Shown here: one piece after another, positions 47,464 through 62,617 of the stretch
Position numbering within the stretch: the first letter of the stretch is position 1
How the letters are laid out: every line of letters begins with the position of its first letter
Virus record (IMG/VR): IMGVR_UViG_3300036546_000248
Length of the DNA stretch: 64,000 nt
Source: a virus
Lineage: Duplodnaviria; Caudoviricetes
Strand: one strand, 5' to 3'
Program-made: the position numbers and the translations under genes
The notes under the pieces: generated by a model
Seen by the model: only the letters and a program-made list of their open reading frames with translations
The model's database searches: none
What the model was told of the DNA's origin: nothing

Positions 47464-49974
47464 ATGTCGCAGACCTACGTTTATCCATTCGACCCGACGG
47501 GCTCGTTGACTTCCAACGTGATCCCTAATGAACGGCATGTGCTGTCTGGGGTAACGGATCGTGAATTCAATTTCATCGTTCCCAAATTTGCACCGTTCTT
47601 TCGCAACAACTTGCGTATCCGTCATCTCGGCCTGGGTCGCGATTTGGTGGAAGGGGTGGATTACCACCTCACGCACTGGTTCCATGCAGCCTCCCACGGT
47701 GTGGGTCGTCCTGTTTATGGCTCTATCACTTTTATCGACCGTAGCCTGACGGGCGTAGTCGAACTCCGCTACCAGACCATCGGTGGGGACTGGGTGTATG
47801 ATGAGGGCACTGTCCTCGAACTGATGGCTAACCGCTTGATGAACCCACGCATCACTACGTGGGAACAAGTAGTGGACTTGCCTTTCCAGTTCCCGGTCAT
47901 CGACCACGAATGGGATCTGGATGACCTCACTGGCGCCAAAGAAGTCGTTGAAAAACTCGAAGGTATCACCGCTGCGATTAACGCGGCTAACGATGCCAAC
48001 GGTACTTCTCACGTGGGTGACACCAACAACCCACACCGCGTCACCAAGCTACAAGTCGGTCTGGGGTTGGTTGAAAACTATCCAATGGCCAACATTGCTG
48101 AAGCCACCGCCGGTTTGAGCAATGAGCTGTATATGACCCCGGTTCGGGTGCGTAACTTCGTTGAGAACTACGTCAACCCACTGTTTGAAACTCACACACT
48201 GCGTAACGATAACCCTCACGGGGTGACGAAGACGCAAGTGGGTCTGGGTAATGTGCAGAACTATGGCGTAGCCACTGCTGAACAAACCGTCGCAGGAACG
48301 TCCAACACCCTGTACGTAACGCCTGTCGCCGTGAAGGCAACACTTGATGCCAACGTGTTTCCTGTCATTACCGCCCACACCAACCGTAAGGATAATCCGC
48401 ACGGCGTAACTAAAGCACAGGTTGGTCTGAATCTGGTTGAAAACCTACCTCTAGCCAATCAAGCAGAAGCCATTGCCGGTAGTCGCAACGACCGCTATAT
48501 GACCCCATTGACGACTTACCAGATGGTCAGTCAGTACGTGGGAGAGGGGATGAACAACCACATCTCCAATCTGGACAACCCACACCGAGTGACTAAGGGT
48601 CAAGTAGGACTGGGTAACGTTCTGAACTACGGTGTTGCAACCGATACGGAAATGGTTGTTGGTACGGCGGATAACCTGTATACCACTCCGAAAGGCGTGC
48701 GGGCTGCTATTGAAGAAATCGCACTGTCCACGTATCGCGATCACACCAACGATGGTAACAACCCACACGGTACTACCAAAGCGCACGTGGGGTTGGGTAA
48801 TGTCGATAACTACCCCACCGCCACCCGCGCCGAAGCAGTGGCCGGTACTGCTACTAACCGATTCATGACTCCCGCAACCACTCAAGCGATGCTTGAGAAC
48901 ATTGTAGGAGATTCGGTAGGTAGTCACGTGAGTCGTCAAGACAACCCTCACCAGGTCACGAAAGCACAGGTTGGTTTGGGTAGCGTTGACAACTTCGCAA
49001 CAGCCAGTCAAGTCGAAGCAATGGAGGGCACTTCTGAGACGTTGTTCATGACGCCTTACACCACGCTATTGGTTTCTCAAGGTGCTGCACGTGCGTTGGT
49101 TAAAGAACACAGTGATCGTAAGGACAACCCACACGGCGTAACTGCCGCTCAATTGGGTGCGGTGACGACTGAAGACCTGGCAACCCGACTGTTGGGTTAT
49201 ATGACCAACGGTAGTAAAGCCGATGACTCGGCTAAGCTTAACGGGTACACCTACGAGCAAATCATGGCGTCGGTGTCTGGTGGTCAGGCCGATGACACCT
49301 TGCGTTTTGGTGGCTATAATGTCGAGGAACTGCGCGATCTCTATGCTCCGTACTACGCCCCTTTGGCTACCAAGCTGGAAGGGAAGTCGCTGAGTGAAGT
49401 GGCAGAGTATGCGGGTAGTTTTGCTTTGGCAGCCCCGGTCCTTCAAAAAGCCCCTTACAACTCTCCGGATGCGTCGGTTGGTGGTTGGACCAAATTGTTC
49501 GAGACCACTCAAACTCAGTTCAGCTTTTTGCTTTCAATTACAGGTGTGGAAAACGACAGACGGGTTGAAAGTTCGTTTGTGAGTTTCTACGACACCGAAA
49601 TGGATACGGATAATGATAAACTTCTGCAACGCTTCTTTGTTGCTGGACGCTATCATCCCCATGAGGTGTATGTTAAGCGACTGGGGGGTGTGTACTCGGT
49701 TTGGGTGAAACACAATTCGGTGAAGGTGGGCCATATCAGTTGCGTCATCTCCGGAGTAGACCGTGTTGACGATATAGTTGTCGTGACAGAGAGCTACGAT
49801 GAAGAGCCGGTCTGGGAAGACTTCGACCCAATGTACGAAGTCTTGTTGGACTCCTGTTCTGAGTCGGTGGACACTTTGATGACACTGTCCTCAGTGGAGC
49901 AATTGATCCAACTTCGTCTTGATGAACTTGCCGCAGAAATGCGAGCTGAAGCACAAGCATCCATCGCCGACTGA
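47464..49974 (+). CDS. tail fibre protein with seven 61-aa NPH repeats
   Basis: N-terminal YPFDPTG..N.I.NE.H domain; repeats NPHxVTKxQVGLGNV.NY...YxTP. Confidence 0.8.
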   Translation: MSQTYVYPFDPTGSLTSNVIPNERHVLSGVTDREFNFIVPKFAPFFRNNLRIRHLGLGRDLVEGVDYHLTHWFHAASHGVGRPVYGSITFIDRSLTGVVELRYQTIGGDWVYDEGTVLELMANRLMNPRITTWEQVVDLPFQFPVIDHEWDLDDLTGAKEVVEKLEGITAAINAANDANGTSHVGDTNNPHRVTKLQVGLGLVENYPMANIAEATAGLSNELYMTPVRVRNFVENYVNPLFETHTLRNDNPHGVTKTQVGLGNVQNYGVATAEQTVAGTSNTLYVTPVAVKATLDANVFPVITAHTNRKDNPHGVTKAQVGLNLVENLPLANQAEAIAGSRNDRYMTPLTTYQMVSQYVGEGMNNHISNLDNPHRVTKGQVGLGNVLNYGVATDTEMVVGTADNLYTTPKGVRAAIEEIALSTYRDHTNDGNNPHGTTKAHVGLGNVDNYPTATRAEAVAGTATNRFMTPATTQAMLENIVGDSVGSHVSRQDNPHQVTKAQVGLGSVDNFATASQVEAMEGTSETLFMTPYTTLLVSQGAARALVKEHSDRKDNPHGVTAAQLGAVTTEDLATRLLGYMTNGSKADDSAKLNGYTYEQIMASVSGGQADDTLRFGGYNVEELRDLYAPYYAPLATKLEGKSLSEVAEYAGSFALAAPVLQKAPYNSPDASVGGWTKLFETTQTQFSFLLSITGVENDRRVESSFVSFYDTEMDTDNDKLLQRFFVAGRYHPHEVYVKRLGGVYSVWVKHNSVKVGHISCVISGVDRVDDIVVVTESYDEEPVWEDFDPMYEVLLDSCSESVDTLMTLSSVEQLIQLRLDELAAEMRAEAQASIAD

Positions 49975-50030: not shown

Positions 50031-51854
50031 ATGTCATCAACATTGACACGGGGTCTTATTCTTAAGTACCCCATTGACCCAACAGCCGTCAACCCCAACA
50101 ACAAAATTGTAGGGGAGGTACACGACTTGGGTGTCGGTATCAACCGAGCCATCGTCCCTAACTACAGCGCCTTCTACAGTGAGTCGTTAGTGGTGCGGGT
50201 CGAGGACCGTGTTGATCCACTGGTGCCTAATGAGCACTACATTGCAGCACAGCTTCACGCTGACGCCACCGCCAGTTTGAACCGTGAGGTTTGTATGGCG
50301 GTTGTGATCAAGGATCAGAACGTCATGGGTAAAATCACCCTCGAATACCAAACGGTAGGGGGTGATTTCAGTGTTTCGGTTGACGCGCTACGCCGAGCAA
50401 TCGAAGACGAAGATCTGGATGAACGTACTGTCAGTTGGGGTGACATCATTGCCCGACCCAGTGCTTATCCACCTGCACCACACCTTCACGACATCGGTGA
50501 CCTTTATGGTTTCGAATACGTCGTAGAGGCTCTGGAAGCTTTGCGGGCAGCCATTCTGATTGGTGACGAAGCCACTCACGAAGAGATTCGTCAGTGGGTG
50601 CGATATGAAGACAGTCTGTTACGAGACAGCATTGCTGAAACCAATGCCAATCTCAACACCCACGTTCGCGACCAATCCAATCCACACGCGGTAACTAAAG
50701 CACAGGTGGGTTTGGGTAATGTCTTGAACTACGGGGTGGCTCAAACTGCCGACATGGTTGCAGCGACCAGCAATGCGCTGTACACCACACCAATCCGTGT
50801 TCGTGATGCTATCAACGAACACGCCATCAAACCGTTGAACGCTCACATTGCCCGTACGGATAACCCGCACGCGGTAACTAAAGCACAGGTTGGTTTGGGA
50901 TTGGTGGCCAACTACAACGTAGCATCTCAGGCCGACATGATCGCCGGTACGTCGCCTTCGTTGTACACGACACCGATTCTGGTCAAACAAGCCATCGATG
51001 AACATGCACTCAAACCACTTAATGCTCACACTGCTCGGGTGGATAACCCACATGGTGTAACCAAAGCACAAGTCGGATTGGGTAATGTCTTGAACTATGG
51101 CGTGGCTAGCGAAGCGCAGGCCCGTGCGGGCACCAGTGATTCGCTGTACATGACGGCATTGAAGACCGCACAAGCCATCAACGAACAAGCGTTGGTACCG
51201 CTCAATGCTCACACTGCTCGGGTGGATAACCCGCATGGTGTAACCAAAGCCCAGGTAGGGCTTGATAGCGTGGATAATTTCGCAACAGCAACTGAGGCAG
51301 AGGCTCGTACCGGGACGGTTAACAACCGCTTCATGACACCGTTGCGTACCGCACAAGCGATTGCTACCCAAGCACTGACGCCACTTAATGCCCACATTGC
51401 GCGAGCAGACAACCCTCACGGGGTGACTAAAGCACAGGTAGGCTTGGGTAATGTGCAGAACTACAGTGTGGCCACTCAAGCGTTGGCAGAAGGTGCGACC
51501 GATAACGGTACATATATGACACCGTTGCGTACAGGTCAGGCTATCAACAATTTGGCAGTCGTGCCTTTGAACGCACACATCAACCGCAGCGATAACCCGC
51601 ACAGTGTAACCAAAGTACAAGTGGGTCTTGGAAGCATTCCAAACTCAATTACCAACTCACGCGGTACGGACAGTAACGCTTCGTTGTTGACCGCAAAAGG
51701 GATGTTTGATCACGTGAACTCGGGTGATCACGATGGACGGTACGCTCCGAAGAACACCGCAGGCGTTGACTGTAGCGTTCATTGGAACGGATCGGGTGTG
51801 TATATCTGGGGTGGTGGTACTTGGCGACAGGTTTGGCCGGCTCAGTGGCAATGA
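50031..51854 (+). CDS. tail fibre protein with six NPH repeats
   Basis: N-terminal YPIDPT..N.I..E.H domain shared with 47464..49974; 61-aa repeats; short C-terminus GVYIWGGGTWRQVW. Confidence 0.8.
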   Translation: MSSTLTRGLILKYPIDPTAVNPNNKIVGEVHDLGVGINRAIVPNYSAFYSESLVVRVEDRVDPLVPNEHYIAAQLHADATASLNREVCMAVVIKDQNVMGKITLEYQTVGGDFSVSVDALRRAIEDEDLDERTVSWGDIIARPSAYPPAPHLHDIGDLYGFEYVVEALEALRAAILIGDEATHEEIRQWVRYEDSLLRDSIAETNANLNTHVRDQSNPHAVTKAQVGLGNVLNYGVAQTADMVAATSNALYTTPIRVRDAINEHAIKPLNAHIARTDNPHAVTKAQVGLGLVANYNVASQADMIAGTSPSLYTTPILVKQAIDEHALKPLNAHTARVDNPHGVTKAQVGLGNVLNYGVASEAQARAGTSDSLYMTALKTAQAINEQALVPLNAHTARVDNPHGVTKAQVGLDSVDNFATATEAEARTGTVNNRFMTPLRTAQAIATQALTPLNAHIARADNPHGVTKAQVGLGNVQNYSVATQALAEGATDNGTYMTPLRTGQAINNLAVVPLNAHINRSDNPHSVTKVQVGLGSIPNSITNSRGTDSNASLLTAKGMFDHVNSGDHDGRYAPKNTAGVDCSVHWNGSGVYIWGGGTWRQVWPAQWQ

Positions 51855-51950: not shown

Positions 51951-52445
51951 ATGTTTAATCAAATTCCCGATCTGGTACAAGAGTACATCGACCTGTGTCT
52001 GGCCTCCGACTATGCTAAGACCGAAGAAGTGGTCCGCATGGTACCTATGCCCAACCGGGACGAGCGTGTGACGTCTGAGCGTTGCCACCTTTTGACTCAC
52101 CCTCAAACCACCATGAAGATCGAGCGCTTCGAAGACTTCTGTCCTGAAGCTCGTGCTCTATGTGATTATTTTGCTGCCTTGTACAATCACAAAGGCCCTG
52201 TGACAGCACACATCTTTAACAGCCCCAAAGACGGCTTCACTTTTGTAGAACACCTCGATCCCGACGATGTGGTGATCTATACAGTCTTTGGCACCAAGAC
52301 AATGGTAATTGATGGCAAACCCGTTCGGATTGCTGCCGGTGAACACGTCTACATGAAAGCCAACACACCTCACTACGCCACCAATGAAGAAGCTTCGGTG
52401 ATGATCAGCATTGGTCTTGAGAAATGGGTAAGGGACAAACTATGA
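51951..52445 (+). CDS. JmjC/cupin-like Fe(II)/2OG oxygenase
   Basis: F..HLD.DDV.I..V.G.K...H facial-triad pattern; GAGG RBS; stop overlaps the next ATG. Confidence 0.65.
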   Translation: MFNQIPDLVQEYIDLCLASDYAKTEEVVRMVPMPNRDERVTSERCHLLTHPQTTMKIERFEDFCPEARALCDYFAALYNHKGPVTAHIFNSPKDGFTFVEHLDPDDVVIYTVFGTKTMVIDGKPVRIAAGEHVYMKANTPHYATNEEASVMISIGLEKWVRDKL

Positions 52446-53488
52446 GCTACAAGACGCTCTACATCAAAACCACCGGCTCATGTAACCTTGATTGCAAACA
52501 CTGTTTCACCGGCGGTAAGGGTGGTGACAAAACCCATTTCAATCCCGAGAAAACAGCACAATGGGTCAAAGACTACATTGAAGCTACCCCAGATGCGGTA
52601 AACTATCACCTCGAATTGCACGGTGGGGAACCCTTCTTGGTACCGGTAGCCAAACTCAAGCAGTTTGTCGACCACTTCAAAGACAACCCCAAAATCACCA
52701 TCGGGGCCAACACCAACCTGACGTACAAGTTGACAGATGAGATCTTAGACTTCATCCAGACTTACTTGGGTAGTTCGATTGGAACCAGTTGGGACCCGTG
52801 GATTCGTTGGGCCAATGACAAACAGTACCAACTGTGGCTCAACAACATGAAACGCCTGCGGTCACTGAACGTCAGTCTCTACACGATCGTATCGGTCTCT
52901 AAGAGAATGACGGAACAGACGCCAGATTGGTTACTCGATCAATTGGCAACGACCGGGGCGACCACAGTGTCACTTGAACGTTTAACGCTCTCAGGCAACG
53001 CCGAGCGCAATCCGGACGTTTTCCCAGACAACGAAGCCCAAGACTATTGGTATTTGGAATTGGTAAAGCGGTATCGGGAACGCAAAGCGGACCTACCGTA
53101 CAACATCCGTACGTTGGATACCCTGATTGAGAAAGTCAATCTTGGGATTGTCAAGACCGATACCAACTGTCGCAACTGTGAGCAGAACTTGGTAACGATC
53201 AACTCCAACGGCACTTTGGGTGGCTGTCCTAACGTGGCCAGTGAACACAAACATGCGACCCTTGATGACTCCGTCCAAACCTTCTTGGTTTCCGATGGAC
53301 GTGTCAATGAGATCGTCAAAGAACTCAACTTCAACGACCCGTGTTACTACTGCGACGTGTTCGACATCTGCGGTGGTGACTGTCATCGTCTGCCTTGGCA
53401 GGGTGACCGGTGCGGTGGGCTTAAGCACACATTACGCTACCTGTCGGGTCGAGTTACAGACTCCAACATCATTTTGAAGGTACGTTAA
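52442..53488 (+). CDS. radical SAM/SPASM protein 1
   Basis: CNLDCKHC, HGGEPF, C-terminal CRNC..GCP..CYYC..ICGGDC; start at ATGA overlap with the cupin stop. Confidence 0.92.
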   Translation: MSYKTLYIKTTGSCNLDCKHCFTGGKGGDKTHFNPEKTAQWVKDYIEATPDAVNYHLELHGGEPFLVPVAKLKQFVDHFKDNPKITIGANTNLTYKLTDEILDFIQTYLGSSIGTSWDPWIRWANDKQYQLWLNNMKRLRSLNVSLYTIVSVSKRMTEQTPDWLLDQLATTGATTVSLERLTLSGNAERNPDVFPDNEAQDYWYLELVKRYRERKADLPYNIRTLDTLIEKVNLGIVKTDTNCRNCEQNLVTINSNGTLGGCPNVASEHKHATLDDSVQTFLVSDGRVNEIVKELNFNDPCYYCDVFDICGGDCHRLPWQGDRCGGLKHTLRYLSGRVTDSNIILKVR

Positions 53489-53489
53489 T

Positions 53490-54029
53490 ATGGCACGTAA
53501 TTTGGAAGCGGCTTGGACGGTGAACCGAGTCAACGCGCTGATTCGAGATCCGATCAACGCCAGAATTGCTTACGGCACCAACAACCCCCCACACGCCAAT
53601 ACGCCCAGTAGCTGGTTTGGGGGTACGACGGAAGGTTTGGGGGCGTTGGCGGTAGACAGTAACGTTCAAGGTACTGCCGGCGCTGCAAAGTTAAACAATA
53701 TGATCCGCAACTACACTCGGTTGTTTAATCGCATCTGTCGTAAGCGCATGATCATCTACTACAATAACAACGGTTCTTTGCAAGTATGGAGTGATGTGAC
53801 CGGTATCGGTAACTTCGCTACAGGGGTGGCCGCATCAGCAATCGCTTCCCCTGCGACAGAATTTAGCGCAGGGTCTAACATCCAAGAGGCGGCTCTTAAC
53901 AGTCATCTCAACTCGATGTATACTTCATGGTGGAACAACGCCGGCAACACCACTGTGGAAACCTTGACTTACACCGTTTGTCACACCTCGTGCCATTCGA
54001 ACTGTAACTGTAACCGTGGTCGGAGATAA
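53490..54029 (+). CDS. Asn/Ala/Gly-rich protein with C-terminal CHTSCHSNCNCNRGRR; candidate radical SAM substrate
   Basis: 179-aa ORF starting 1 nt after the rSAM1 stop; all four closely spaced Cys are in the last 16 residues. Confidence 0.7.
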   Translation: MARNLEAAWTVNRVNALIRDPINARIAYGTNNPPHANTPSSWFGGTTEGLGALAVDSNVQGTAGAAKLNNMIRNYTRLFNRICRKRMIIYYNNNGSLQVWSDVTGIGNFATGVAASAIASPATEFSAGSNIQEAALNSHLNSMYTSWWNNAGNTTVETLTYTVCHTSCHSNCNCNRGRR

Positions 54030-54033
54030 TTAG

Positions 54034-54741
54034 ATGACTACCCCTGTCGTTGTAATTGAAACAACAGCCCCGATACCCGTCGAACTACTCCGTCGTAAGT
54101 ACACCGAAAACATCCGCTTTGTGATCGACTACTCCACCAGTCGTTTCAAAGGTCGGACGCTGATTAACTTCCTCAATAACGTGGGGATTGAATGTCAGCT
54201 CAAACTCGACAACAACCAAGAATCCTTGGACTTGGTCTCGGCGTACCTCAACCATCCAGCCGTGGTAGATATCCCAGATCTTAACGACGTGGTGATGAAC
54301 CTCATGTTGGCTTTGGTTGGTGAGGAAAACTACTTGGCCTTCGAACCCGAAATGTTCCAAAAGTTCGTCGCTGATAATGAAGCCATTCTTAAAACGTGGT
54401 TTCGTCGTGTGGGCTCGATTGGACTATTTCCGTTCTATGTAAACAAAACCGTAGAGCGCAGCTTCATCGAACAGTTCCCTGTGGACGAGGATGCCTCGTT
54501 GCCTGGCTTGAGCTTTGTGCAATTGATGCGTCATCCGCTCTGGCCACTGTTGGTCAGTCACATTCCACAATCGGCATGGTGCGTTAACCCGACGTTCTTT
54601 AACGAGTACATCTTTGCTGGTATGAACTTGATGTACTACTTCTCCAATCCTGACAACCCGCTTTGTATGGCCGCCATCACCCGTGATGAAGACCTGAATG
54701 AGACGCTCTTAACAGCGCTCAATGAAGCCGGGGAGGAATAG
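54034..54741 (+). CDS. hypothetical protein in the radical SAM cluster
   Basis: tightly packed 235-aa ORF; no recognised motif. Confidence 0.8.
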   Translation: MTTPVVVIETTAPIPVELLRRKYTENIRFVIDYSTSRFKGRTLINFLNNVGIECQLKLDNNQESLDLVSAYLNHPAVVDIPDLNDVVMNLMLALVGEENYLAFEPEMFQKFVADNEAILKTWFRRVGSIGLFPFYVNKTVERSFIEQFPVDEDASLPGLSFVQLMRHPLWPLLVSHIPQSAWCVNPTFFNEYIFAGMNLMYYFSNPDNPLCMAAITRDEDLNETLLTALNEAGEE

Positions 54742-54744
54742 ACC

Positions 54745-55809
54745 ATGCTACACGTATTTGGCGACCTATACGTCGAAACTGAGTTCCGCGCCTACCCGAC
54801 CGACAACCAGATCAATATCTCGATGAACACGGGGTTTGAGAAGGTTGCGCACCCGTTCGTTGAAAACGAAGGCAAGCAGTTTGGTTGGGCATTGAGCTTG
54901 GATGAATTCAGTAGTGAGAGTTTCTACGAACTTCTACGTGCCGCCGTTGACTCTGAACGTAAGGTAATGATTTACGTTGATTCAGAAACCTATGTTCGCT
55001 TCTACGCAGCTCTTCTCAAAGCGTTGCTACCCGGCATCACCGAGGAAATGTTCAAACAGTTCTTCATCTGCATTAAGGCAACTTACGACCACTCCACCGT
55101 CAGCTTCTATGACAGTGTGATGGACCATTCGTTGGCCCTCAAGATCAATCGGGAATTGGTTGAACGTTATTGGACGTTTGAAGATCCTGAGATCGTCACT
55201 GCACTGCGCCGTCTTATCAACAGCGATCCCGACAAGATCTCTCTTGAGTGGCGAGTGATGAAGTTGTTCGGAACCGGTTACGTAGGTAAGGTGGCCAAGA
55301 CCATCCAAAACATCATGCGCCGTACGGCAATCAGTAACAGTCACGACGCCATGGAAGATTGGGGGCGGGTGATCGTCGATCCTACGCGTTGGTCGGTCTC
55401 CGGGTGTACGGCAGACGGCTTGCTTGAAGCCGACTCCACATTCCAGGCCTGTGTCAATTTTGGCAATTTGTCTGACCCCGACTTGCGTATCCCAGGGGCG
55501 ATGAAAAAGAAAGCCAGTCGAGCCTATTTGGTGGAGCTACTCACCAACATCGAGAAAGTGTTGGTGGATACTGGTGATCTTGCTTCTGCCAACCGCAGTG
55601 CCAATCTGCGCAAAGCGTTGGAGGACGAGTCTGATATGTCAGACCCAGAGAATCTCAAGCGACGCATTCGCATGTTGTTCGATGGTGGTCCCGCCACTTT
55701 CCGCCTCGCCAACCTGGATGCTGCCAAGTACAACGAGAACTTGATCCGCACCGTCATTCGTCTGCCTGAAGACCTCATCAAGGACTTGTTGAAAGGAGCC
55801 GCCTGGTGA
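54745..55809 (+). CDS. hypothetical protein in the radical SAM cluster
   Basis: 354-aa ORF with GGAGG RBS; stop overlaps the rSAM2 start. Confidence 0.8.
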   Translation: MLHVFGDLYVETEFRAYPTDNQINISMNTGFEKVAHPFVENEGKQFGWALSLDEFSSESFYELLRAAVDSERKVMIYVDSETYVRFYAALLKALLPGITEEMFKQFFICIKATYDHSTVSFYDSVMDHSLALKINRELVERYWTFEDPEIVTALRRLINSDPDKISLEWRVMKLFGTGYVGKVAKTIQNIMRRTAISNSHDAMEDWGRVIVDPTRWSVSGCTADGLLEADSTFQACVNFGNLSDPDLRIPGAMKKKASRAYLVELLTNIEKVLVDTGDLASANRSANLRKALEDESDMSDPENLKRRIRMLFDGGPATFRLANLDAAKYNENLIRTVIRLPEDLIKDLLKGAAW

Positions 55810-56804
55810 ATAACCTCATCCCTATCGTCGACGTACTAGCAGACAAAAAAGGAGAACAGAAGGAAGCTCATTTGATCCTGTTTGAGTACTGTAATCTTCG
55901 GTGTAGTTTCTGTCACCAAGACCACGACTCGAAGGTGGGGATGTCGGCCGACGCCATGTGGGAGAAGGTGTATGCATTGTTTGCAAACACCAACCCCAGT
56001 GACCCGTACGTGGTGAACATCACCGGTGGGGAGTTGTTCTTGGATGAATATCCGGACGACTACTTCGACGTTTACTACGGGATCGCACGTCGGATCTTCG
56101 AACACTACGATGACGTGGTGGTGGTTTTTGGGGCGAACTTGGTGTACGAGAACATTGAACGGGTGGTGCGGTTGCTTGAGCAGCTTAAACCACACGGTAA
56201 AGTACAGCTTGCCACCTCGTATGACCCAGCCGGCCGTTTTGACCGAGAGTCGTTCATGCTTTTCATGCACAACTTAACGCAAGTTAAGGAGTACGTAGAG
56301 ACCGTGAACGTCGTGATCACTCGACAGAACATCGAAACCATTTTGGCTGGGAGAGAAACCGCTACGCTTGACTGGTTGTGTGATAACTTCCAAGTGTTCT
56401 TCGACCACTATATCCCCAGCGCACAGTTCGAACGTATCCAGCCTTCTGAAGATCAGATTGGTAAACTTTACCTGTACCTGAACGAACATCACCCTAATTC
56501 CTATCCACTGATCAGTTGGAAAGAGAATTACCGTAACGTGACCACGTGTCGCTCTACGAAGATCGTAAACAAGGACGGGGTAGTTACAACCTGTTGGTCT
56601 GAAGCGGGTAAAGATGCAGTCTTGGATGAGCAGGCCGGATTGCTGGCGAAGAATGCGGCTGAGGAGCGTTTTCTTGAGCACTACGAGTGTTTCTCGTGTG
56701 AGTACTATCAACGGTGCGGGTTACGGTGTTTCTTGCATCACAGCTTCGTTGAGGGTACTACGAGCGAGTGTCAGATAAAAGAAATGTTCCGCAAGATCCT
56801 GTAA
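55806..56804 (+). CDS. radical SAM protein 2 with C-terminal Cys cluster
   Basis: CNLRCSFC, TGGELF, C-terminal CFSC...RCGLRC; GTG start in a GTGA overlap. Confidence 0.9.
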   Translation: MNNLIPIVDVLADKKGEQKEAHLILFEYCNLRCSFCHQDHDSKVGMSADAMWEKVYALFANTNPSDPYVVNITGGELFLDEYPDDYFDVYYGIARRIFEHYDDVVVVFGANLVYENIERVVRLLEQLKPHGKVQLATSYDPAGRFDRESFMLFMHNLTQVKEYVETVNVVITRQNIETILAGRETATLDWLCDNFQVFFDHYIPSAQFERIQPSEDQIGKLYLYLNEHHPNSYPLISWKENYRNVTTCRSTKIVNKDGVVTTCWSEAGKDAVLDEQAGLLAKNAAEERFLEHYECFSCEYYQRCGLRCFLHHSFVEGTTSECQIKEMFRKIL

Positions 56805-56909: not shown

Positions 56910-58004
56910 ATGGATCTCATAATCAAAGGCACTTCAAAATGTAACTACCGTTGTACTTTCTGTAGCTCCACAGTGCTGTCCGATGACCATAACGATGTGT
57001 TGGATATTGCATACATCGATCGCTTCGTACAGCGCTTTGCAGACACGTTAAACACGGTGATTGTCAACGGTGGTGACCCGTTAATGCTTCCCGTACAGTA
57101 CTACTGGGACATTCTGGACATTCTGGCCAAATACAACTGTGAAGCCAAACTCTCGTTCACCAGTAACCTCTGGGCGTTCTATAAAAAGCCTGATCTGTGG
57201 ACCGACTTGTTTCGCCACCCACAAGTAGGTGTGATCACCTCATTCCAGTATGGTGACAAGCGCCTTAAGGGCGACCGCACACCGTTTACCGAAGCTGAGT
57301 TCTGGGCTATCTCAGATCTGTTTTTGGACCGCGTTGGTTATCGACCTGAGTTCATTGCCGTCATTGACCAAGACAATGAACACACCGTCTTGCAAACGGT
57401 TGAGTTGGCCAAAGCTATGGGGGTGGAATGTAAGATCAACCACGTCCTAGCCTCAGGACCTGAAGTCAACAAGCAGGGTGTGGTGATGGGGAGTGCAAAG
57501 AACTTCTTCACCCAAGCCGACATCTACGAACATTACATTCAGATCATCGAGGCAGGCTTAGGGGAGTGGGAGTACAACTGCAAGCAACTGACAAAGAAGT
57601 TGCGTGGCGGTCACACCACCTGCCCTTTAAGTCGTAGTTGTGATGCCGGTATACGCACACTCCAACCAGACGGCTCCTACTACAGCTGTGGCGCGTTTGG
57701 TGACGACCGCACCCATCGTATAGACTTCGATCAGGAAATGGCTTCAGCGGCCTTACAGACGCCTTTACAGGACGATCCTGACCTCGATACAATGAAGCTT
57801 GCGTGTTATGCTTGTCCGATGTTCGAAATCTGCAATGGGTGCCGCAAAACCATTGCCGACACTAAGAGGTTTGGGTTACAAGAACACCAGTGTCGCAAGA
57901 TGAAATCCCTAGCCCCCAAGATCATCGAACTCAACGGTTTGGTTGGTGTGTTAGAGCCGACCCCGTATGAAGACGAAAGTCTTGAGCTAATCTTTAAAGG
58001 ATGA
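56910..58004 (+). CDS. radical SAM/SPASM protein 3
   Basis: CNYRCTFC, NGGDPL, CPLSRSC..YSC..CYAC..EICNGC. Confidence 0.92.
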   Translation: MDLIIKGTSKCNYRCTFCSSTVLSDDHNDVLDIAYIDRFVQRFADTLNTVIVNGGDPLMLPVQYYWDILDILAKYNCEAKLSFTSNLWAFYKKPDLWTDLFRHPQVGVITSFQYGDKRLKGDRTPFTEAEFWAISDLFLDRVGYRPEFIAVIDQDNEHTVLQTVELAKAMGVECKINHVLASGPEVNKQGVVMGSAKNFFTQADIYEHYIQIIEAGLGEWEYNCKQLTKKLRGGHTTCPLSRSCDAGIRTLQPDGSYYSCGAFGDDRTHRIDFDQEMASAALQTPLQDDPDLDTMKLACYACPMFEICNGCRKTIADTKRFGLQEHQCRKMKSLAPKIIELNGLVGVLEPTPYEDESLELIFKG

Positions 58005-58007
58005 CCT

Positions 58008-58955
58008 ATGAATTCTCAAAATCCTGAACTGACGATTTCCCTGAATCCATGGTATTATTGTAACCTTGCGTGCGACTTCTGTTATCTGACACCTGAGCAG
58101 TTAAACGACAAACAAAAAATCGACCCCGACGTTTTGGCTCGGCGGTTAGATGAAGTGCTCGAAGCCGGCTATGACATCACCCACGTCGACTTGTATGGGG
58201 GTGAACCGAGCCTGTTACCCAAAGCGTATATGGATGAGTTGAAGCTCACCCTGTTCTCCCGTGGCGTGACGGACATTGTAGTCCACACCAACCTGACGGC
58301 TATTAACGACATCGTACTTGATGAAGACTATGAGTTGTCTGTCTCGTATGACTTCACCTCACGCGAGAAGCACGACCTGGTGTTCAACAACATGTTGTCA
58401 CTGGAGCGTCGGTACAACGTGTTGACCTTGGCCTCGCGTACATTACTGGATACCTTAAGTGCCGATGAGTTTGTCCGCACCTTTAACCTGTTAACTAACG
58501 CACGGTTCATCGAGATCAAACCGTACTCGACCAACCAAGCCAATCAACAAAACGTTCAGTTCGATGAATTCGAACAATTGGTTTATGGGGTAATCAACCA
58601 CCCTGATCGTTTGTTTGAGTTTGAAAACCAGCGCCTTATCGAAACAGCGTTGTCAGGTGAGCGTAACGCGTTTAGTGACGATCACTTGTATATCACCCCA
58701 AGGGGTGAGTTTGCAGTGCTGGACTTTGACCTGAATGACAATGAGTATTTCAGGCCAATGGCATCGCTTGACGAATACCACCGTTGGTGCGAAAACGAAA
58801 AGCGTAAAGTCAACACCAACAGCATCTGCAATAGCTGCCAGTTCAAAGGCCATTGTCTGTCTGAGCACCTACGAGACGTGAAGTCTTTGGAGCGCTCCTG
58901 CAATGGATTTCACAACCTACTCGTAAGGTATCAACGCGATGTTTGTTCAACATAG
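58008..58955 (+). CDS. radical SAM protein 4 with C-terminal Cys cluster
   Basis: CNLACDFC, YGGEPS, CNSCQFKGHC..SC. Confidence 0.9.
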   Translation: MNSQNPELTISLNPWYYCNLACDFCYLTPEQLNDKQKIDPDVLARRLDEVLEAGYDITHVDLYGGEPSLLPKAYMDELKLTLFSRGVTDIVVHTNLTAINDIVLDEDYELSVSYDFTSREKHDLVFNNMLSLERRYNVLTLASRTLLDTLSADEFVRTFNLLTNARFIEIKPYSTNQANQQNVQFDEFEQLVYGVINHPDRLFEFENQRLIETALSGERNAFSDDHLYITPRGEFAVLDFDLNDNEYFRPMASLDEYHRWCENEKRKVNTNSICNSCQFKGHCLSEHLRDVKSLERSCNGFHNLLVRYQRDVCST

Positions 58956-59964
58956 ACAACGTCTTGAAATCACTCTGGACATGTTTCGTGGCTGTGCTCA
59001 CAGCTGTAGTGGATGTATGGTTGATCGTACACTTGGTGGTGCGGTCGACGACTTAGTGCCGTTACAAGCACTGTTGCAGGAAATGGTTGCAGCTGGCTTT
59101 GTGGCCTTCGACGTAGGGATTGGTCCTACTGACTTTATGTCAGCTGATAACGTTGATGAGCTGATGTATCACCCGGTGTTTCAAGAGATCGCTCAGATGT
59201 TTGAGCAGGTCACTTTTCAAACCGCACTGTTGGATAAGAACTTCGACAACTACACTGAGATGTGTCGGATAGTCGATGAAACCTGTCCGGGCAAAGCGAT
59301 TCGTTTTTTGATTCCAGGTGCACCGGATTTTTTCAAGACGCGAAAGTTCGGCGACATGGTGGTGAAGAAACTCAACCATGTCAAGAGCACTCTGAAGTCT
59401 GCGTACTTGAACGAAGCAGGTTTTGTGATCAATTGTACTCGAGATACTGTGGGTGAGCAATTTGATACATCTTTACATCGTATGTTCGATGTTGAGTTTC
59501 CTGTCGACAAAGACGACATCCTGAACATCCCGTACGGACGTAGTAAAAGTATCGACATCATGCTTGGGCAGAACGTGAAAACAATCAGTCACCGCATCAG
59601 TCAGTACTACACAACCTTGGATGTAGACAACGAGCGTTTCCGTAATCCTGATCGTCATGAAGACACAGGAACCATGCAGAACCTACTCTACACCGACGGA
59701 AAGTTGTATTGGGTACCGTTCTTAAAGGATGACTTCGCTTTTTTGAATGATGCTTTCGTGATCCCAAGACCATGGACCATGGATGCGGTTCTCACAGCGC
59801 GTACGGCGGCTATACAGAAGAGCTTGGACTTCCTACAAGGTACTGAATGTCTGAGTTGTCCGTTGTTGCCCAGTTGTTCTGAGAAAGGCATCACCACCAT
59901 CATGCGTATGTTGTCAGTACGTGACTGTATTGTGGGAGATGAGCATGTTCGTAGCCCAGAGTGA
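58939..59964 (+). CDS. divergent radical SAM-like protein 5
   Basis: CAHSCSGC near the N-terminus, GPTD in place of GGE, C-terminal CLSCPLLPSC..C. Confidence 0.7.
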   Translation: MFVQHRQRLEITLDMFRGCAHSCSGCMVDRTLGGAVDDLVPLQALLQEMVAAGFVAFDVGIGPTDFMSADNVDELMYHPVFQEIAQMFEQVTFQTALLDKNFDNYTEMCRIVDETCPGKAIRFLIPGAPDFFKTRKFGDMVVKKLNHVKSTLKSAYLNEAGFVINCTRDTVGEQFDTSLHRMFDVEFPVDKDDILNIPYGRSKSIDIMLGQNVKTISHRISQYYTTLDVDNERFRNPDRHEDTGTMQNLLYTDGKLYWVPFLKDDFAFLNDAFVIPRPWTMDAVLTARTAAIQKSLDFLQGTECLSCPLLPSCSEKGITTIMRMLSVRDCIVGDEHVRSPE

Positions 59965-60985
59965 TGAGGCCTTTAACATCCAGCTGGAGATTTTAAAGGA
60001 CTGCGGTTATTCGTGTCAGGACTGTGCCATCGACAAAAGCAAAACCAGTGATTACATGCGAGTCGGGGATGATGACTTGTTAATCCGAGCGGCCGACGAG
60101 TTTAAGGACCACGGCTTTCGGTTACATGAATTTACCCTAGGTCCAACTGACATCATCTCCTCAAAGTCCGGTTTGGGGATCTTTGATCGCTACGTCGTGA
60201 AGGAATTGACGCAGCGTTATGATTCACTCACTGTGTCCTTGGCGTTGTTGTTTGATCGTCAGTTAGTGGAGTTGGCACGCACAGTTGATCGTGTGATGCG
60301 GGGCAAGAAGTTTCGACTGATTGTCCCACTCACCATTCGTAATGCCCACAACGAGAAGTTCTTGAACCTGATTCGTCAGCGGATTAAAGTCATCAAGGAC
60401 AACTTGTTTGAGACTGATTTTTATATGGTCTATATCGGCATTAATATGGTCAACGCTTCGGCTGAAGCATTTAACTTCGACAACAACAAACTGGTTCACG
60501 ATCTGGATGTTGGGGTTCACCAGACGGTGGAGTACAACTTCCCTCATTCCCGAATGGGGTTAGAACAACACCGTGCGGCGTTCTTAAACGACCTTCAAGC
60601 GTTTATTAACGGTCTACACGAAACAGTAGACCGTGACGCTAACTACAACCGGTTTCTGGTTCCTAATATCAAAGACAGCATTGAGACCATCTACTACCAA
60701 GGTGATCTTTATTATGTCCCAAGCTTAATCGAAAAGTTCCCGTTGTTCGAACCTACGTTTAAGTTAGCCAGACCCTACTCGATGTCAAGCGTCTTACAAT
60801 TTAAGTACGACCTCTACACCGAGAACCTGTTGGAGTATAGCGACAAGCAACCCTGTTCCGATTGTTGTTTTGTTGATGAGTGTGCCCGTGGTGACATACA
60901 TGTCATCATGCGTAAACTTAACCACAATCAATGTTTACTTGACATGAAAAACAGGTGGGATCAACCTACCCCAAGGATTCGTTAG
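59945..60985 (+). CDS. divergent radical SAM-like protein 6
   Basis: CGYSCQDC, GPTD, C-terminal CSDCCFVDEC..C; paralog of protein 5; start placed at MFVAQ. Confidence 0.7.
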   Translation: MFVAQSDEAFNIQLEILKDCGYSCQDCAIDKSKTSDYMRVGDDDLLIRAADEFKDHGFRLHEFTLGPTDIISSKSGLGIFDRYVVKELTQRYDSLTVSLALLFDRQLVELARTVDRVMRGKKFRLIVPLTIRNAHNEKFLNLIRQRIKVIKDNLFETDFYMVYIGINMVNASAEAFNFDNNKLVHDLDVGVHQTVEYNFPHSRMGLEQHRAAFLNDLQAFINGLHETVDRDANYNRFLVPNIKDSIETIYYQGDLYYVPSLIEKFPLFEPTFKLARPYSMSSVLQFKYDLYTENLLEYSDKQPCSDCCFVDECARGDIHVIMRKLNHNQCLLDMKNRWDQPTPRIR

Positions 60986-61435
60986 ATGTCCACTCAACCC
61001 CCTTATAAAGAATATCAGTACCTGTATCGGGAGCTGGTAGAAGAACACGACGATGCGATCGACAAAGTTCCATCCGTTGTGACAGAAAACACCCTCGAGG
61101 AAAAACTACGAGGGGCTATGGCGTACTTTGAAGCACAAAGCTTTCCCATTATCTATCCTGGCAAAAGCTATGGGGTGGCTGTGGTGTACGCCTATCACAT
61201 CTTGCGTGATTACAACATTCCAGTACTTGAGACGTTAAACGAGTCGGACTTGTTCTTAGGTGAGGACCCCTACTTTGTGGTCTATCAGGACGATCCTGAA
61301 ACTTATGACCGGTTACTGGAAAAACTCCAACCCCTAGGTGACATTACCGAGTTAGGCTGGGCGAAGCAAACCAGCGAGTACTATCGTTTGGAATGTACCG
61401 CCGAGGGCTTGGCTGAAGTCATGGCGCGAGGTTAA
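60986..61435 (+). CDS. hypothetical protein in the radical SAM cluster
   Basis: 149-aa acidic, Tyr-rich ORF abutting rSAM6. Confidence 0.8.
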   Translation: MSTQPPYKEYQYLYRELVEEHDDAIDKVPSVVTENTLEEKLRGAMAYFEAQSFPIIYPGKSYGVAVVYAYHILRDYNIPVLETLNESDLFLGEDPYFVVYQDDPETYDRLLEKLQPLGDITELGWAKQTSEYYRLECTAEGLAEVMARG

Positions 61436-61436
61436 G

Positions 61437-61997
61437 GTGAATACATATATCAATCCTTGGAACATCGTTGTTGGCCGTATCAATGTAGCTGACCAGTTTG
61501 ACATGAAAGAATTCTACGATGAAGTCTTTCTGCTTCAAGCTATGGCCGGACAAGAAGACCCCTCTCAAGAACGTTTGGACCCTGAGCTACTACCGACCCT
61601 GATGAACATGCGCGATAACGTCGTCACACCGGCTGTAGTACAGTACGCTCAAGATGTTTGGGAGTACACGATCCCGAAGATCGAAGTTGAGACCAATGCC
61701 AAGTGGATTCCAGAAGGTGAGGGTTTGTTTCCTCATTACCACGCTGGTAGTTGTCTGTCCGCTATCTGCTATCCTCAAGACTCTGAGTCGGGGATTAACT
61801 TCTTTGATCCTCGTGGACATGCCTGTCGAGGGTATCCAAAAGAGATTCGTGATCGGTTCTTTGCGGCATGGAAAGTCTCACCCAGAGCTGGCGACATCTA
61901 CATCTTTCCAAGTTACATACAGCACAGTGTTTCTTATGTAAAAGAAGACGTACGGCTGTCTTTGCTTCACGAATACTACCTGCGTGAAAACGTATAA
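61437..61997 (+). CDS. Fe(II)/2OG oxygenase (TIGR02466/PF13759-like) A
   Basis: PHYH..S.LS.I.YP, F.DPRG, P.AGDIYIFPSYIQHSV, RLSL. Confidence 0.8.
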   Translation: MNTYINPWNIVVGRINVADQFDMKEFYDEVFLLQAMAGQEDPSQERLDPELLPTLMNMRDNVVTPAVVQYAQDVWEYTIPKIEVETNAKWIPEGEGLFPHYHAGSCLSAICYPQDSESGINFFDPRGHACRGYPKEIRDRFFAAWKVSPRAGDIYIFPSYIQHSVSYVKEDVRLSLLHEYYLRENV

Positions 61998-62017: not shown

Positions 62018-62572
62018 ATGCAAATGCAACTCCTCACTCCTTGGGCTATTCAGATCGGTCGCGTCAATTTGAAAGAACTCATCGATGCTGACGCCATCGC
62101 CACTGAGATCCACACCCTACACCTGGTTTCGCCACGAGAGTCCACCATTCCGTATGAAGTCAACGAGCAAGAGTTTCCAGTGATCTGTGCGGCCCGCGAC
62201 ACGGTAATCGAAAAAGCCGTACGCGAATTCATTGTTAAGGTTTTTGCCCACTCTCCAAAGAACCTCAAAATCGATACCTTCGGTAAAGCATTCGAGAAAT
62301 ACGAAGGGCTAGATGCCCATCTTCACGGTAACAGTAACGTGACCACGGTGTACTATCCGTACGCCAGTGATAGTGGCATTCGCTTTTTCGATCCTCGGGG
62401 CAATGCCTCTCGCGGCTATCCACGAAGCATTCGCGATAGCCATTTCGGGGAGTTGTACATTCAACCCGAAGCCGGCGATCTGTTGATCGTACCGAGTTAC
62501 GTACAGCACAGTGTGGCCCACGCTACTGAAGATGTACGTCTCTCGTTGGTCAATGATTTCTTCTTCGATTGA
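62018..62572 (+). CDS. Fe(II)/2OG oxygenase (TIGR02466/PF13759-like) B
   Basis: AHLH..S.VT.VYYP, F.DPRG, P.AGDLLIVPSYVQHSV, RLSL; tandem paralog of A. Confidence 0.8.
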   Translation: MQMQLLTPWAIQIGRVNLKELIDADAIATEIHTLHLVSPRESTIPYEVNEQEFPVICAARDTVIEKAVREFIVKVFAHSPKNLKIDTFGKAFEKYEGLDAHLHGNSNVTTVYYPYASDSGIRFFDPRGNASRGYPRSIRDSHFGELYIQPEAGDLLIVPSYVQHSVAHATEDVRLSLVNDFFFD

Positions 62573-62582
62573 CTATTATCCC

Positions 62583-62617
62583 AGGGAGGCTTCGGCCTCC
62601 CTAGGCTTTTATGCCCG
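62583..62617 (+). terminator. GC hairpin followed by TTTTATGCCCG
   Basis: AGGGAGGC-TTCG-GCCTCCCT at the right border of the cluster. Confidence 0.75.

Follow-up and report, generated by a model that had tools for sequence, protein, structure and literature searches.

A Cys-His repeat tail on a jumbo-phage protein encoded within a radical SAM/oxygenase cassette: a candidate for enzymatic maturation

Introduction

Radical S-adenosylmethionine (SAM) enzymes of the SPASM type, SPASM being a C-terminal Cys motif that holds extra Fe-S clusters, are known from the maturation of small secreted peptides and of a few cellular proteins. To our knowledge, maturation of virus particles by radical SAM/SPASM enzymes is not known. 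The spikes and fibres of phages have metal-binding tips, with His or His/Cys sites in T4 gp37, P2 gpV and PAAR proteins; these sites lie within rigid trimeric β-structures and require no dedicated enzymes. Here we describe a phage gene whose product, the CH-tail protein, ends in repeated Cys-His units and which lies directly beside the gene of a radical SAM/SPASM enzyme (rSAM1), in a 64,000-nucleotide stretch of viral DNA (Duplodnaviria; Caudoviricetes) from the IMG/VR record IMGVR_UViG_3300036546_000248. The whole of this stretch is referred to as the window, and the genes around that of the CH-tail protein as the cassette.

His-x-X motifs are proven substrates of the radical SAM triceptide synthases HaaB (motif HAA), HtkB (HTK) and YhhB (HNR) (PMC11499958). 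In phages, such enzymes have drawn little comment: in the literature on phages DT01, FLC6, SURPRISE13, RP12/RP31 and Atu_ph07 (PMC6102473), radical SAM genes are only listed, or are guessed to serve in DNA repair or metabolism, and a literature search for phage-encoded SPASM systems or systems for peptides made on the ribosome and then modified (RiPPs) found nothing relevant. The evidence set out below makes it rather probable that the CH-tail protein is a virion protein, the tail of which is modified by the co-encoded cassette.

Results

The CH-tail protein and its family

The gene of the CH-tail protein begins with ATG and has an open frame encoding 179 residues that end in CHTSCHSNCNCNRGRR (a longer excerpt of the C-terminus is ...TYTVCHTSCHSNCNCNRGRR). 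The open reading frame (ORF) of rSAM1 ends at 53488, i.e., a gap of 1 nt separates it from the CH-tail ORF, which starts at 53490. The residues present most often are Asn (25), Ala (22), Thr (17), Ser (14) and Gly (14); Cys is found at positions 83, 164, 168, 172 and 174, and His at positions 35, 139, 165 and 169. An earlier note on this DNA, made from the sequence alone, had described a 179-residue ORF rich in Asn, Ala, Thr and Gly, 1 nt after rSAM1 and with a single Cys outside its tail, and it was correct in each respect, the single Cys being C83. The string CH..CH is unique to the CH-tail ORF across all six frames of the window. The H-x-[S/N] units of the window protein are HTS and HSN, and there is Asn in place of a third His.

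A profile search of 1.84 billion representative sequences, with E up to 1e-3, gave 154 proteins, nearly all of 170–205 residues. A first scan of IMG/VR with a narrow alignment of five sequences gave nothing, and a scan with a broader alignment gave 151 relatives. Motifs were counted in 155 sequences, comprising the clade of the query and 150 representatives at 50% identity. Of these 155, 123 end exactly in C-H-x-x-C-H-x-x-C-H-x-x-R-x-R-R, a recurrence that is far more than chance. Within these canonical tails, the Cys of all three repeats, the His of repeats 1 and 2, and the three Arg of R-x-R-R are invariant (123/123), and the His of repeat 3 is present in 115. The residue directly after each His is variable (S, A, T, Y, N, D or G), whereas the next residue, His+2, is Ser in 106 and Asn in 14 for repeat 1, Ser in 68 and Asn in 48 for repeat 2, and Ser in 88, Asn in 22 and Ala in 12 for repeat 3. 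For repeats 1 and 2, this is Ser or Asn in at least 97%, and only the middle residue of each repeat varies. There is no Cys beyond the tail in 70 of the 123 canonical members, and the mean frequency of the top residue is 0.36 for residues 1–161 vs. 0.78 for residues 162–179.

Thus, the Cys/His tail that the earlier note had pointed out is real, but the spacing CxxxCxxxCxC that it gave is not the motif. What the family conserves is (C-H-x-[S/N])x3 and, after it, R-[G/S]-R-R; C174 and the Asn replacing the third His are peculiar to the clade of the window protein (P0001–P0005), in which the third unit is, atypically, C-N-C-N.

The number of repeats across the family is two, three or four, and in some members the core unit is duplicated: P0022 (L008:10001-10684) has 13 CHxx units arranged in five blocks with N-V-P-V-like linkers and a single AARGRR end. 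Its blocks recall the precursors of multi-core RiPPs, and the tail of P0022 may be regarded as a multi-core form. In the longer members of the family (257–436 residues), PHROGs gave no sign that the tail module is fused to a fibre or baseplate domain; the PHROGs entry for the CH-tail protein itself is phrog_35144, annotated as "unknown function". Comparison of five family members with Pfam and NCBIfam at E up to 10 revealed no precursor family.

Fold of the body and the tail

An AlphaFold2 model, based on an alignment of 115 sequences, has an α/β domain (pLDDT 87.8, pTM 0.82) comprising three long helices, a long β-hairpin and a C-terminal strand that runs into the tail. The protein-sized carrier proposed in the earlier note can therefore be described as a folded domain. 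The tail itself has low confidence in the model (block-mean pLDDT 73 and 54) and is predicted to be flexible; thus, it would be accessible to enzymes.

With this model as the query, Foldseek against the PDB gave nothing at E up to 0.001, a wide search with VIA-align gave a best Z of 4.3, and the matches of a shape search of the ESM Atlas were all below a TM of 0.32. Matches to the baseplates of phages Milano and Mu and to TssK (Z 2.5–3.6) were too weak to use. The clusters of AFDB, the ESM Atlas and BFVD contained only unnamed phage relatives, among them gp170 of Agrobacterium phage Atu_ph07. As no solved structure is alike, the body is a phage-specific domain to which no fold class or fold-based function could be assigned. 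The body fold was also found in three BFVD proteins of 504–660 residues from Myoviridae sp. ctijX18 (A0A8S5USJ8, A0A8S5USJ7 and A0A8S5USV2; Foldseek E 7e-5 to 4e-4), and these models suggest that the domain also occurs inside larger proteins.

Linkage to radical SAM genes

The neighbourhood of the gene was compared in 93 loci (80 from IMG/VR, two from a genome collection, and the remaining ones from Logan, ENA and GenBank phages), in each of which ORFs were called and searched by phmmer with the 15 cassette and fibre proteins of the window. In 92 of the 93 loci, the ORF directly upstream of the CH-tail gene is the ortholog of rSAM1, the exception being a contig of 756 bp, and in 90 of 93 an ortholog of p235 lies downstream. 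The spacing between rSAM1 and the CH-tail gene, 1 nt in the window, elsewhere consists of small gaps or overlaps. The reverse also holds: all 15 records of the phage database that contain an rSAM1 ortholog have a CH-tail gene adjoining it (15/15). The tie between the tail and radical SAM genes that the earlier note had proposed was borne out in this way in both directions, and homologs are not commonly found lacking radical SAM neighbours, a pattern that the note had named as one that would speak against its proposal.

The widespread core of the cassette consists of the cupin, rSAM1, the CH-tail protein, p235, rSAM2, rSAM3 and rSAM4, often together with p149 and an oxygenase of PF13759; a phiKZ-like subset has in addition the two fibre-like genes, p354, rSAM5 and rSAM6. 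In loci other than the phiKZ-like ones, the gene just 5′ of the cassette often, but not always, has a C-terminal domain of the tail-fibre type. The records bearing rSAM1 include Agrobacterium phage Atu_ph07 and Sinorhizobium phage Phosso. Atu_ph07 is reported to encode homologs of T4 core proteins and to be related to Rak2-like phages (PMC6102473), and is therefore not built on a phiKZ-like backbone. The cassette is thus present in two unrelated jumbo-phage backbones, the phiKZ-like one and that of Atu_ph07 and Phosso.

Among 185,579 genomes of prokaryotic species there were only two matching loci, both on cassette-bearing contigs of metagenome-assembled genomes. These two contigs (L092 and L093), labelled Bdellovibrio or Bdellovibrionaceae, have an extra ORF of 337–340 residues between rSAM1 and the CH-tail gene as well as a second paralog of rSAM1, and a cupin could not be detected on them. 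These are probably phage contigs that were binned into bacterial assemblies. In one IMG/VR contig, a gene resembling tryptophan halogenases (L051:2832-4409; phrog_2928, E=1.7e-144) lies just 5′ of the cassette.

The ending of the tail and the type of oxygenase

The family also includes tails that lack RxRR, and the gene 5′ of rSAM1 changes with the ending. In loci with room for an upstream gene, to which these counts are confined, a JmjC-like cupin is present in 82 of 86 with an RxRR tail, being adjacent to rSAM1 in 80 of the 82, and in none of five (0/5) with a tail without RxRR. A naive Fisher test gives p = 3e-6, a value that is inflated because the loci are related. In a lineage with tails ending in ...CHGDGPGxGGGV, the slot of the cupin is occupied by a gene of PF13640 (2OG-FeII_Oxy_3; Logan contigs L097:6317-6952 and L098:2293-2928), which we take to be the Pfam family of prolyl 4-hydroxylases. 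In a lineage with tails ending right after repeat 3 (...CHGS-I/L), it is occupied by an unrelated protein of 404–434 residues. The simplest reading of an oxygenase type that tracks the ending of the tail is that the oxygenase 5′ of rSAM1 acts on the residues following the repeats, which in turn would make the tail an enzyme substrate.

These lineages differ in other respects too. The cassette of the first is reduced to rSAM1, p235, p354, rSAM3 and an oxygenase fusion of 356 residues; that of the second (L096:4638-6569 and L096:7995-9090) includes a B12-binding radical SAM protein of 643 residues, and a Peptidase_S74 (fibre chaperone-type) protein follows the cassette.

The proteins of the cassette

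Across 81 orthologs of rSAM1, the CxxxCxxC motif (C20/C24/C27) and GGE (67–69) are each present in at least 93%, and each member of the SPASM set (C252-x10-G263-x4-C268, C307-x2-C310-x5-C316-x3-C320 and C330, plus C249) in at least 97%. The best matches of rSAM1 in NCBIfam, extending over nearly its full length, are anSME, YhhB, AmcB, FxsB, PapB and DarE/DynA, all of which, on their family assignments, are SPASM enzymes that modify proteins or peptides. rSAM2 and rSAM3 have kept SPASM-like sets of Cys. rSAM3 is by far the most conserved protein of the cassette, with dozens of Tyr, Trp, Arg and Lys positions that do not vary and with GGD instead of GGE; it may carry out the key step, because it is retained even in the most reduced variants. 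In 59 orthologs of the cupin, H101-x-D103...H141 is invariant and K116 is present in 98%, which is an Fe(II)/2-oxoglutarate (2OG) signature. Thus, with their catalytic motifs intact, the enzymes of the cassette look active.

The near-constant downstream neighbour, p235, has an AlphaFold2 model (pLDDT 91.4) with a mixed α/β N-terminal part and a helical bundle. Searches with this fold gave no match in the PDB, a best Z of 4.3 over just 54 residues, and no family. p235 is a candidate for a recognition or chaperone factor; the prediction of its complex with the CH-tail protein scored 0.00, which is counted neither for nor against this role.

A distant ortholog in purified virions

The gp170 protein of Atu_ph07 has 296 residues and a tail of the CH type, ending in ...DFCHSSCHASCHNSRSRR; the mass calculated for it, 31,894 Da, agrees with the tabulated 31.89 kDa (PMC6102473 Table S5). 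Digestion of gp170 by trypsin is predicted to yield the C-terminal part as a peptide of 30 residues with three Cys. In virions purified with polyethylene glycol (PEG), gp170 was identified by electrospray ionization tandem mass spectrometry from eight unique peptides, with 35% coverage, across gel slices 1–9 and most abundantly in slice 1 (PMC6102473 Table S5). Slice 1 otherwise contained proteins of 75–139 kDa, and proteins of about 30 kDa peaked in slices 7–8 (PMC6102473); among the proteins of less than 40 kDa identified from at least three peptides, gp170 alone peaked in slice 1 (PMC6102473 Table S5). The cupin (gp172), the radical SAM enzymes (gp171, gp168 and gp165) and the p235 ortholog (gp169) are not among the listed virion proteins, whereas gp176 and gp177, encoded 5′ of the cassette, are (PMC6102473 Table S5). 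The idea of the earlier note that this is a structural protein has thereby gained support for that distant ortholog only. There is no virion proteome of the window phage itself, and a search of the literature found none for its closer relatives.

The genome and the block around the gene

The window belongs to a phiKZ-like jumbo phage, encoding a β subunit of the virion-type multisubunit RNA polymerase (5179–9498), a tail protein of 2399 residues with a transglycosylase domain, UvsX, an SbcC-like ATPase, a baseplate assembly protein and several fibre-like proteins. The genes of the block are arranged in the order SbcC, baseplate, two fibre-like proteins, cupin, radical SAM enzyme, CH-tail protein, further radical SAM enzymes and oxygenases (Table 1). 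The block is conserved in this order in Pseudomonas phage pPa_SNUABM_DT01, in the Ralstonia phages RSL2 and RsoM3USA, and in metagenomic contigs; in the group of RSF1, FLC6, FLC8 and SURPRISE13, similarity matches place the CH-tail gene beside the rSAM1 ortholog. A megablast search of the phage collection with the cassette gave no match.

Ralstonia phage RP31 (L100, AP017925, 76162-86742) has the same two fibre-like (YomR-like) genes, followed by a different cluster, of four CxxxCxxC proteins, in which there is no CH-tail gene and no CH..CH motif. Data from mass spectrometry of RP31 virions therefore cannot inform about the CH-tail protein. A 125-residue protein, ORF070, which ends in ...RSHTHYSPDGSY, precedes the cluster of four radical SAM genes in RP31; it was rejected as a homolog of the CH-tail protein (hhalign probability 1.6%). 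From this comparison of gene order, the slot 3′ of the two fibre-like genes seems to be a hot spot for radical SAM cassettes in phiKZ-related phages.

Table 1. Coordinates in the window of the CH-tail gene, its tail and the features around it.
Feature	Position	Strand	Basis or remark
Fibre-like virion protein 1, directly 5′ of the cassette	47464..49974	+	PHROG 2163 and 13857, virion structural or tail protein
Fibre-like virion protein 2, directly 5′ of the cassette	50031..51854	+	PHROG 2163 and 13857
JmjC-like cupin Fe(II)/2OG oxygenase, co-varying with the RxRR end of the tail	51951..52445	+	Pfam Cupin_2 and JmjC_2
rSAM1, radical SAM/SPASM enzyme, 354 residues, proposed first maturase	52424..53488	+	Pfam Radical_SAM and Fer4_12
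CH-tail protein P0001, 179 residues: α/β body (residues 1–164) and flexible C-terminal tail	53490..54029	+	ORF and AlphaFold2 model
Tail core CHTS-CHSN-CNCN-RGRR, clade variant of the family consensus	53979..54026	+	Exact C-terminus of the CH-tail protein
p235, 235 residues, no assigned function, ortholog of Atu_ph07 gp169	54034..54741	+	BLASTP to gp169, E=1e-17
p354, no assigned function, in the phiKZ-like subset and some others, outside the universal core	54745..55809	+	Neighbourhood survey
rSAM2, SPASM-type radical SAM enzyme, widespread core	55806..56804	+	Conserved Cys C248, C263, C295, C298, C304, C308 and C322
rSAM3, most conserved enzyme of the cassette, retained in reduced variants	56910..58004	+	phmmer E=1.9e-146 to the L097 ortholog
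rSAM4, radical SAM enzyme, widespread core	58008..58955	+	Neighbourhood survey
rSAM5, putative divergent paralog, mainly in the phiKZ-like subset	58939..59964	+	No Pfam family matched
rSAM6, putative divergent paralog, mainly in the phiKZ-like subset	59921..60985	+	No Pfam family matched
p149, small protein, no assigned function, frequent in the cassette	60986..61435	+	Neighbourhood survey
2OG-Fe(II) oxygenase, copy 1	61437..61997	+	PF13759
2OG-Fe(II) oxygenase, copy 2	62018..62572	+	PF13759
Terminator-like hairpin, 8 pairs, 6 GC, ending the co-directional block	62583..62602	+	Hairpin

Discussion

A candidate substrate and its proposed place in the particle

The CH-tail protein would be a small, phage-specific virion component of low copy number, consisting of a body of about 160 residues and a flexible C-terminal peptide. 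This peptide, (Cys-His-x-Ser/Asn)x3-Arg-x-Arg-Arg, would be the substrate of the cassette and would be matured before or during assembly. rSAM1, a SPASM-type enzyme that would hold two auxiliary Fe-S clusters, would act on the repeats, probably helped by the near-universally retained rSAM3 and, in most lineages, by rSAM2 and rSAM4. The likely products are intramolecular crosslinks, of which two kinds fit the sequence best. One runs from C2 of the His to Cβ of the Ser or Asn two residues on, as in triceptides, and such a cyclophane fits since a variable middle residue and a conserved third residue are typical of triceptide motifs. The other is a thioether at the Cys residues, as in ranthipeptides, and with four core radical SAM enzymes both products may be formed; a third option would be the conversion of Cys to formylglycine, in the manner of anSME. 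The JmjC-like cupin encoded 5′ of rSAM1 would act on the Arg-rich end, probably by hydroxylating an Arg of RxRR, and the PF13759 oxygenases may add further oxidations. The matured protein would then be built into the particle near a fibre or the baseplate.

Several observations weigh against this explanation. The third His is not strictly required, because the clade of the window protein has Asn in its place, and a tail of three Cys and three His is also plausible as a metal site without enzymatic change. The CH-tail protein matches no known precursor family in Pfam or NCBIfam, and all radical SAM enzymes of the cassette score far below the curated NCBIfam cut-offs of every characterized maturase family. 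The covariation of the tail ending with the oxygenase is supported by just two or three independent lineages. With regard to the particle, gp170 is the sole virion evidence and is distant from the window protein (Foldseek E=2.8e-4, 14% identity), and the virion list for the PEG-purified preparation includes some clearly non-structural proteins (PMC6102473). Furthermore, the loading buffer as described contained no reductant (PMC6102473), so the signal in slice 1 could come from disulfide multimers formed in air, which would imply free thiols.

Other explanations of the tail

The alternative with the most in its favour, which we nevertheless consider unlikely, is that the tail is an unmodified metal-binding site (for Zn, Fe, Cu or a small Fe-S cluster) of a structural protein, similar to the His/Cys sites at the tips of phage spikes and fibres, and that the radical SAM enzymes and oxygenases act on the fibre proteins or on a small molecule. 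Three Cys and three His within 12 residues are a classic set of ligands, the presence of gp170 in virions is as expected for such a site, its migration in band 1 in the absence of reductant fits free, oxidizable thiols, and the fibre-like genes that often lie by the cassette could encode the real substrates. This would, however, leave unexplained why the Ser or Asn at His+2 is as conserved as the ligands themselves, and why the type of oxygenase changes with the residues following the repeats. Nor would it account for the fixed place of the gene between rSAM1 and p235, kept in 90 or more of the 93 loci even where there is no adjacent fibre gene; the tail is predicted to be flexible rather than to adopt a metal-organized fold; and a number of repeats that varies (2, 3, 4 or 13) is more in line with a repeated core than with a fixed site.

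It is improbable that the protein is a scaffold from whose C-terminal residues a small molecule or cofactor is built and later cleaved off, as for pyrroloquinoline quinone from PqqA, mycofactocin from MftA, and the pearlins. In its favour are a motif that, like that of MftA, ends the protein, the large number of redox enzymes relative to a single short peptide, the protein size of the carrier, and a near-invariant partner, p235, to which no function is assigned. Against this, no peptidase or amide-bond-forming enzyme is conserved in the cassette, gp170 was recovered in virions and the enzymes were not, and the invariant RxRR would have to be removed or belong to the product.

About as improbable is an accessory role, as an Fe-S carrier or dedicated electron donor for the radical SAM enzymes rather than their substrate: such enzymes depend on a reductant and on the assembly of Fe-S clusters, a cluster could be held by C-x3-C-x3-C and the His next to it, and the coupling to rSAM1 is tight, but no fold search gave any resemblance to ferredoxin, flavodoxin or IscU/NifU, a cofactor carrier would not be expected in virions without its enzymes, and neither the 13-repeat variant nor the covariation of RxRR with the cupin would be explained.

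Implications

More broadly, in jumbo phages of at least two unrelated lineages, a radical-SAM/oxygenase cassette may be dedicated to maturing a particle component, i.e., to forming crosslinks (possibly between proteins) or a metal-bearing structure on the (Cys-His-x-Ser)n-RxRR tail of a small protein, which is then built into the tail apparatus. We put this forward as a tentative proposal, somewhat short of an even chance. If true, a virion protein would for the first time be seen to be matured post-translationally by radical-SAM enzymes, and the CH-tail protein would represent a new, protein-sized class of RiPP-like substrates.

A cassette of ten genes or more with a clearly defined candidate substrate is conserved in large phages, over more than 150 sequence clusters. 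Should the tail be modified, then a folded carrier with a C-terminal repeat core would be a new class of substrate, the chemistry of the crosslink on the Cys-His-x-Ser unit would probably be new, and a new question would arise, namely why the particles of jumbo phages need oxygen-sensitive radical chemistry during their assembly. From the natural variants, a pairing of enzymes with parts of the tail can be predicted: the JmjC-like cupin would read RxRR, and the prolyl-hydroxylase type GPG. Culturable carriers of the cassette include pPa_SNUABM_DT01, RSL2/RSF1, FLC6/FLC8 and Atu_ph07.

Comparison with known systems

The His-Xaa-Ser system (HxsA with the radical SAM enzymes HxsB and HxsC) resembles the cassette in having H-x-S repeats beside paired radical SAM enzymes, and HxsB and HxsC give weak matches to rSAM1–3. 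These matches are below the cut-offs (HxsB 30.4 bits vs. 370; HxsC 19–25.7 vs. 267.9) and no NCBIfam precursor model matches, and the CH tail differs in its interleaved Cys, its RxRR end and its restriction to phages.

The ranthipeptides (SCIFF) and the targets of CXXX-repeat enzymes (PapB/freyrasin, CteB, TIGR04115) likewise have Cys at every fourth residue of the C-terminus and adjoining SPASM radical SAM enzymes, and PapB is among the best matches of rSAM1 (E=7.5e-13). The tail, in contrast, lacks the acidic or Thr acceptor of CX3D and SCIFF peptides and is attached to a protein-sized carrier, and rSAM1 has eight conserved C-terminal Cys vs. the seven of a canonical SPASM. No NCBIfam or Pfam model of a ranthipeptide/SCIFF precursor, which is short (about 45 residues) and Cys-rich, matches the 179-residue CH-tail protein; against rSAM1, the models of ScfB and PapB fall far short of their cut-offs, as does TIGR04115 against rSAM2 (16.9 bits vs. 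a cut-off of 350). A feature search of the Atlas gave the CXXX-repeat radical SAM target family with a score of 0.78, a weak lead; the CH-tail protein had no Pfam match at E up to 10, and PF27846, named only by the Atlas search, was not confirmed in the copy of Pfam that was scanned. The SCIFF/ranthipeptide and His-Xaa-Ser assignments did not hold at the level of family models, and the CXXX-repeat models scanned gave no match.

The closest match of rSAM1 in NCBIfam is anSME (E=9.4e-16, residues 14–322 on positions 4–326 of a model of 363), which is also the best for rSAM3. Like the enzyme proposed here, anSME is a radical SAM/SPASM enzyme whose substrate is a folded protein, not a peptide, a Cys or Ser being the residue modified, and the last repeat of the tail has an Arg at Cys+4 that can be compared with C-x-P-x-R. 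The position at +2 of the last repeat is not mostly Pro or Ala (Gly in 50, Ser in 31, Asn in 14, Cys in 7, Ala in 6 and Thr in 5 of 123), there are three repeats instead of a single site, TIGR03942 gives 57.8 bits vs. a cut-off of 349, and no sulfatase fold was found in PDB Foldseek or VIA-align searches.

The metal-binding tips of spikes and fibres share with the CH-tail protein a Cys/His-rich terminal segment, association with the virion, and genes located by those of fibres and the baseplate; the CH tail differs in being predicted to be flexible and in being locked to a radical SAM cassette. Attachment of heme c (CxxxCH) was dropped as an explanation, since this is a phage-only cytoplasmic family without signal peptide context and the link to radical SAM enzymes would be unexplained.

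The triceptides resemble the system in the motif itself: the repeated H-x-[S/N] of the tail corresponds to aromatic-x-X, with a variable middle and a conserved third residue, beside a SPASM radical SAM enzyme, and YhhB is the second-best NCBIfam match of rSAM1 (E=1.4e-15, over nearly the whole protein). rSAM1 falls in no cyclophane-synthase family (YhhB 57.1 bits vs. a cut-off of 445, AmcB 53.7 vs. 425, FxsB 41.2 vs. 370), and by these scores is related to cyclophane synthases at the superfamily level only. Instead of a short leader-core peptide there is here a folded phage protein of 179 residues, with an invariant Cys before each H-x-[S/N] and four to six phage-encoded radical SAM enzymes, and a virion protein appears to retain the product. 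The class of enzyme is thus familiar; the novelty lies in the type of substrate, in its motif, in the occurrence in viruses and in the particle as the likely destination.

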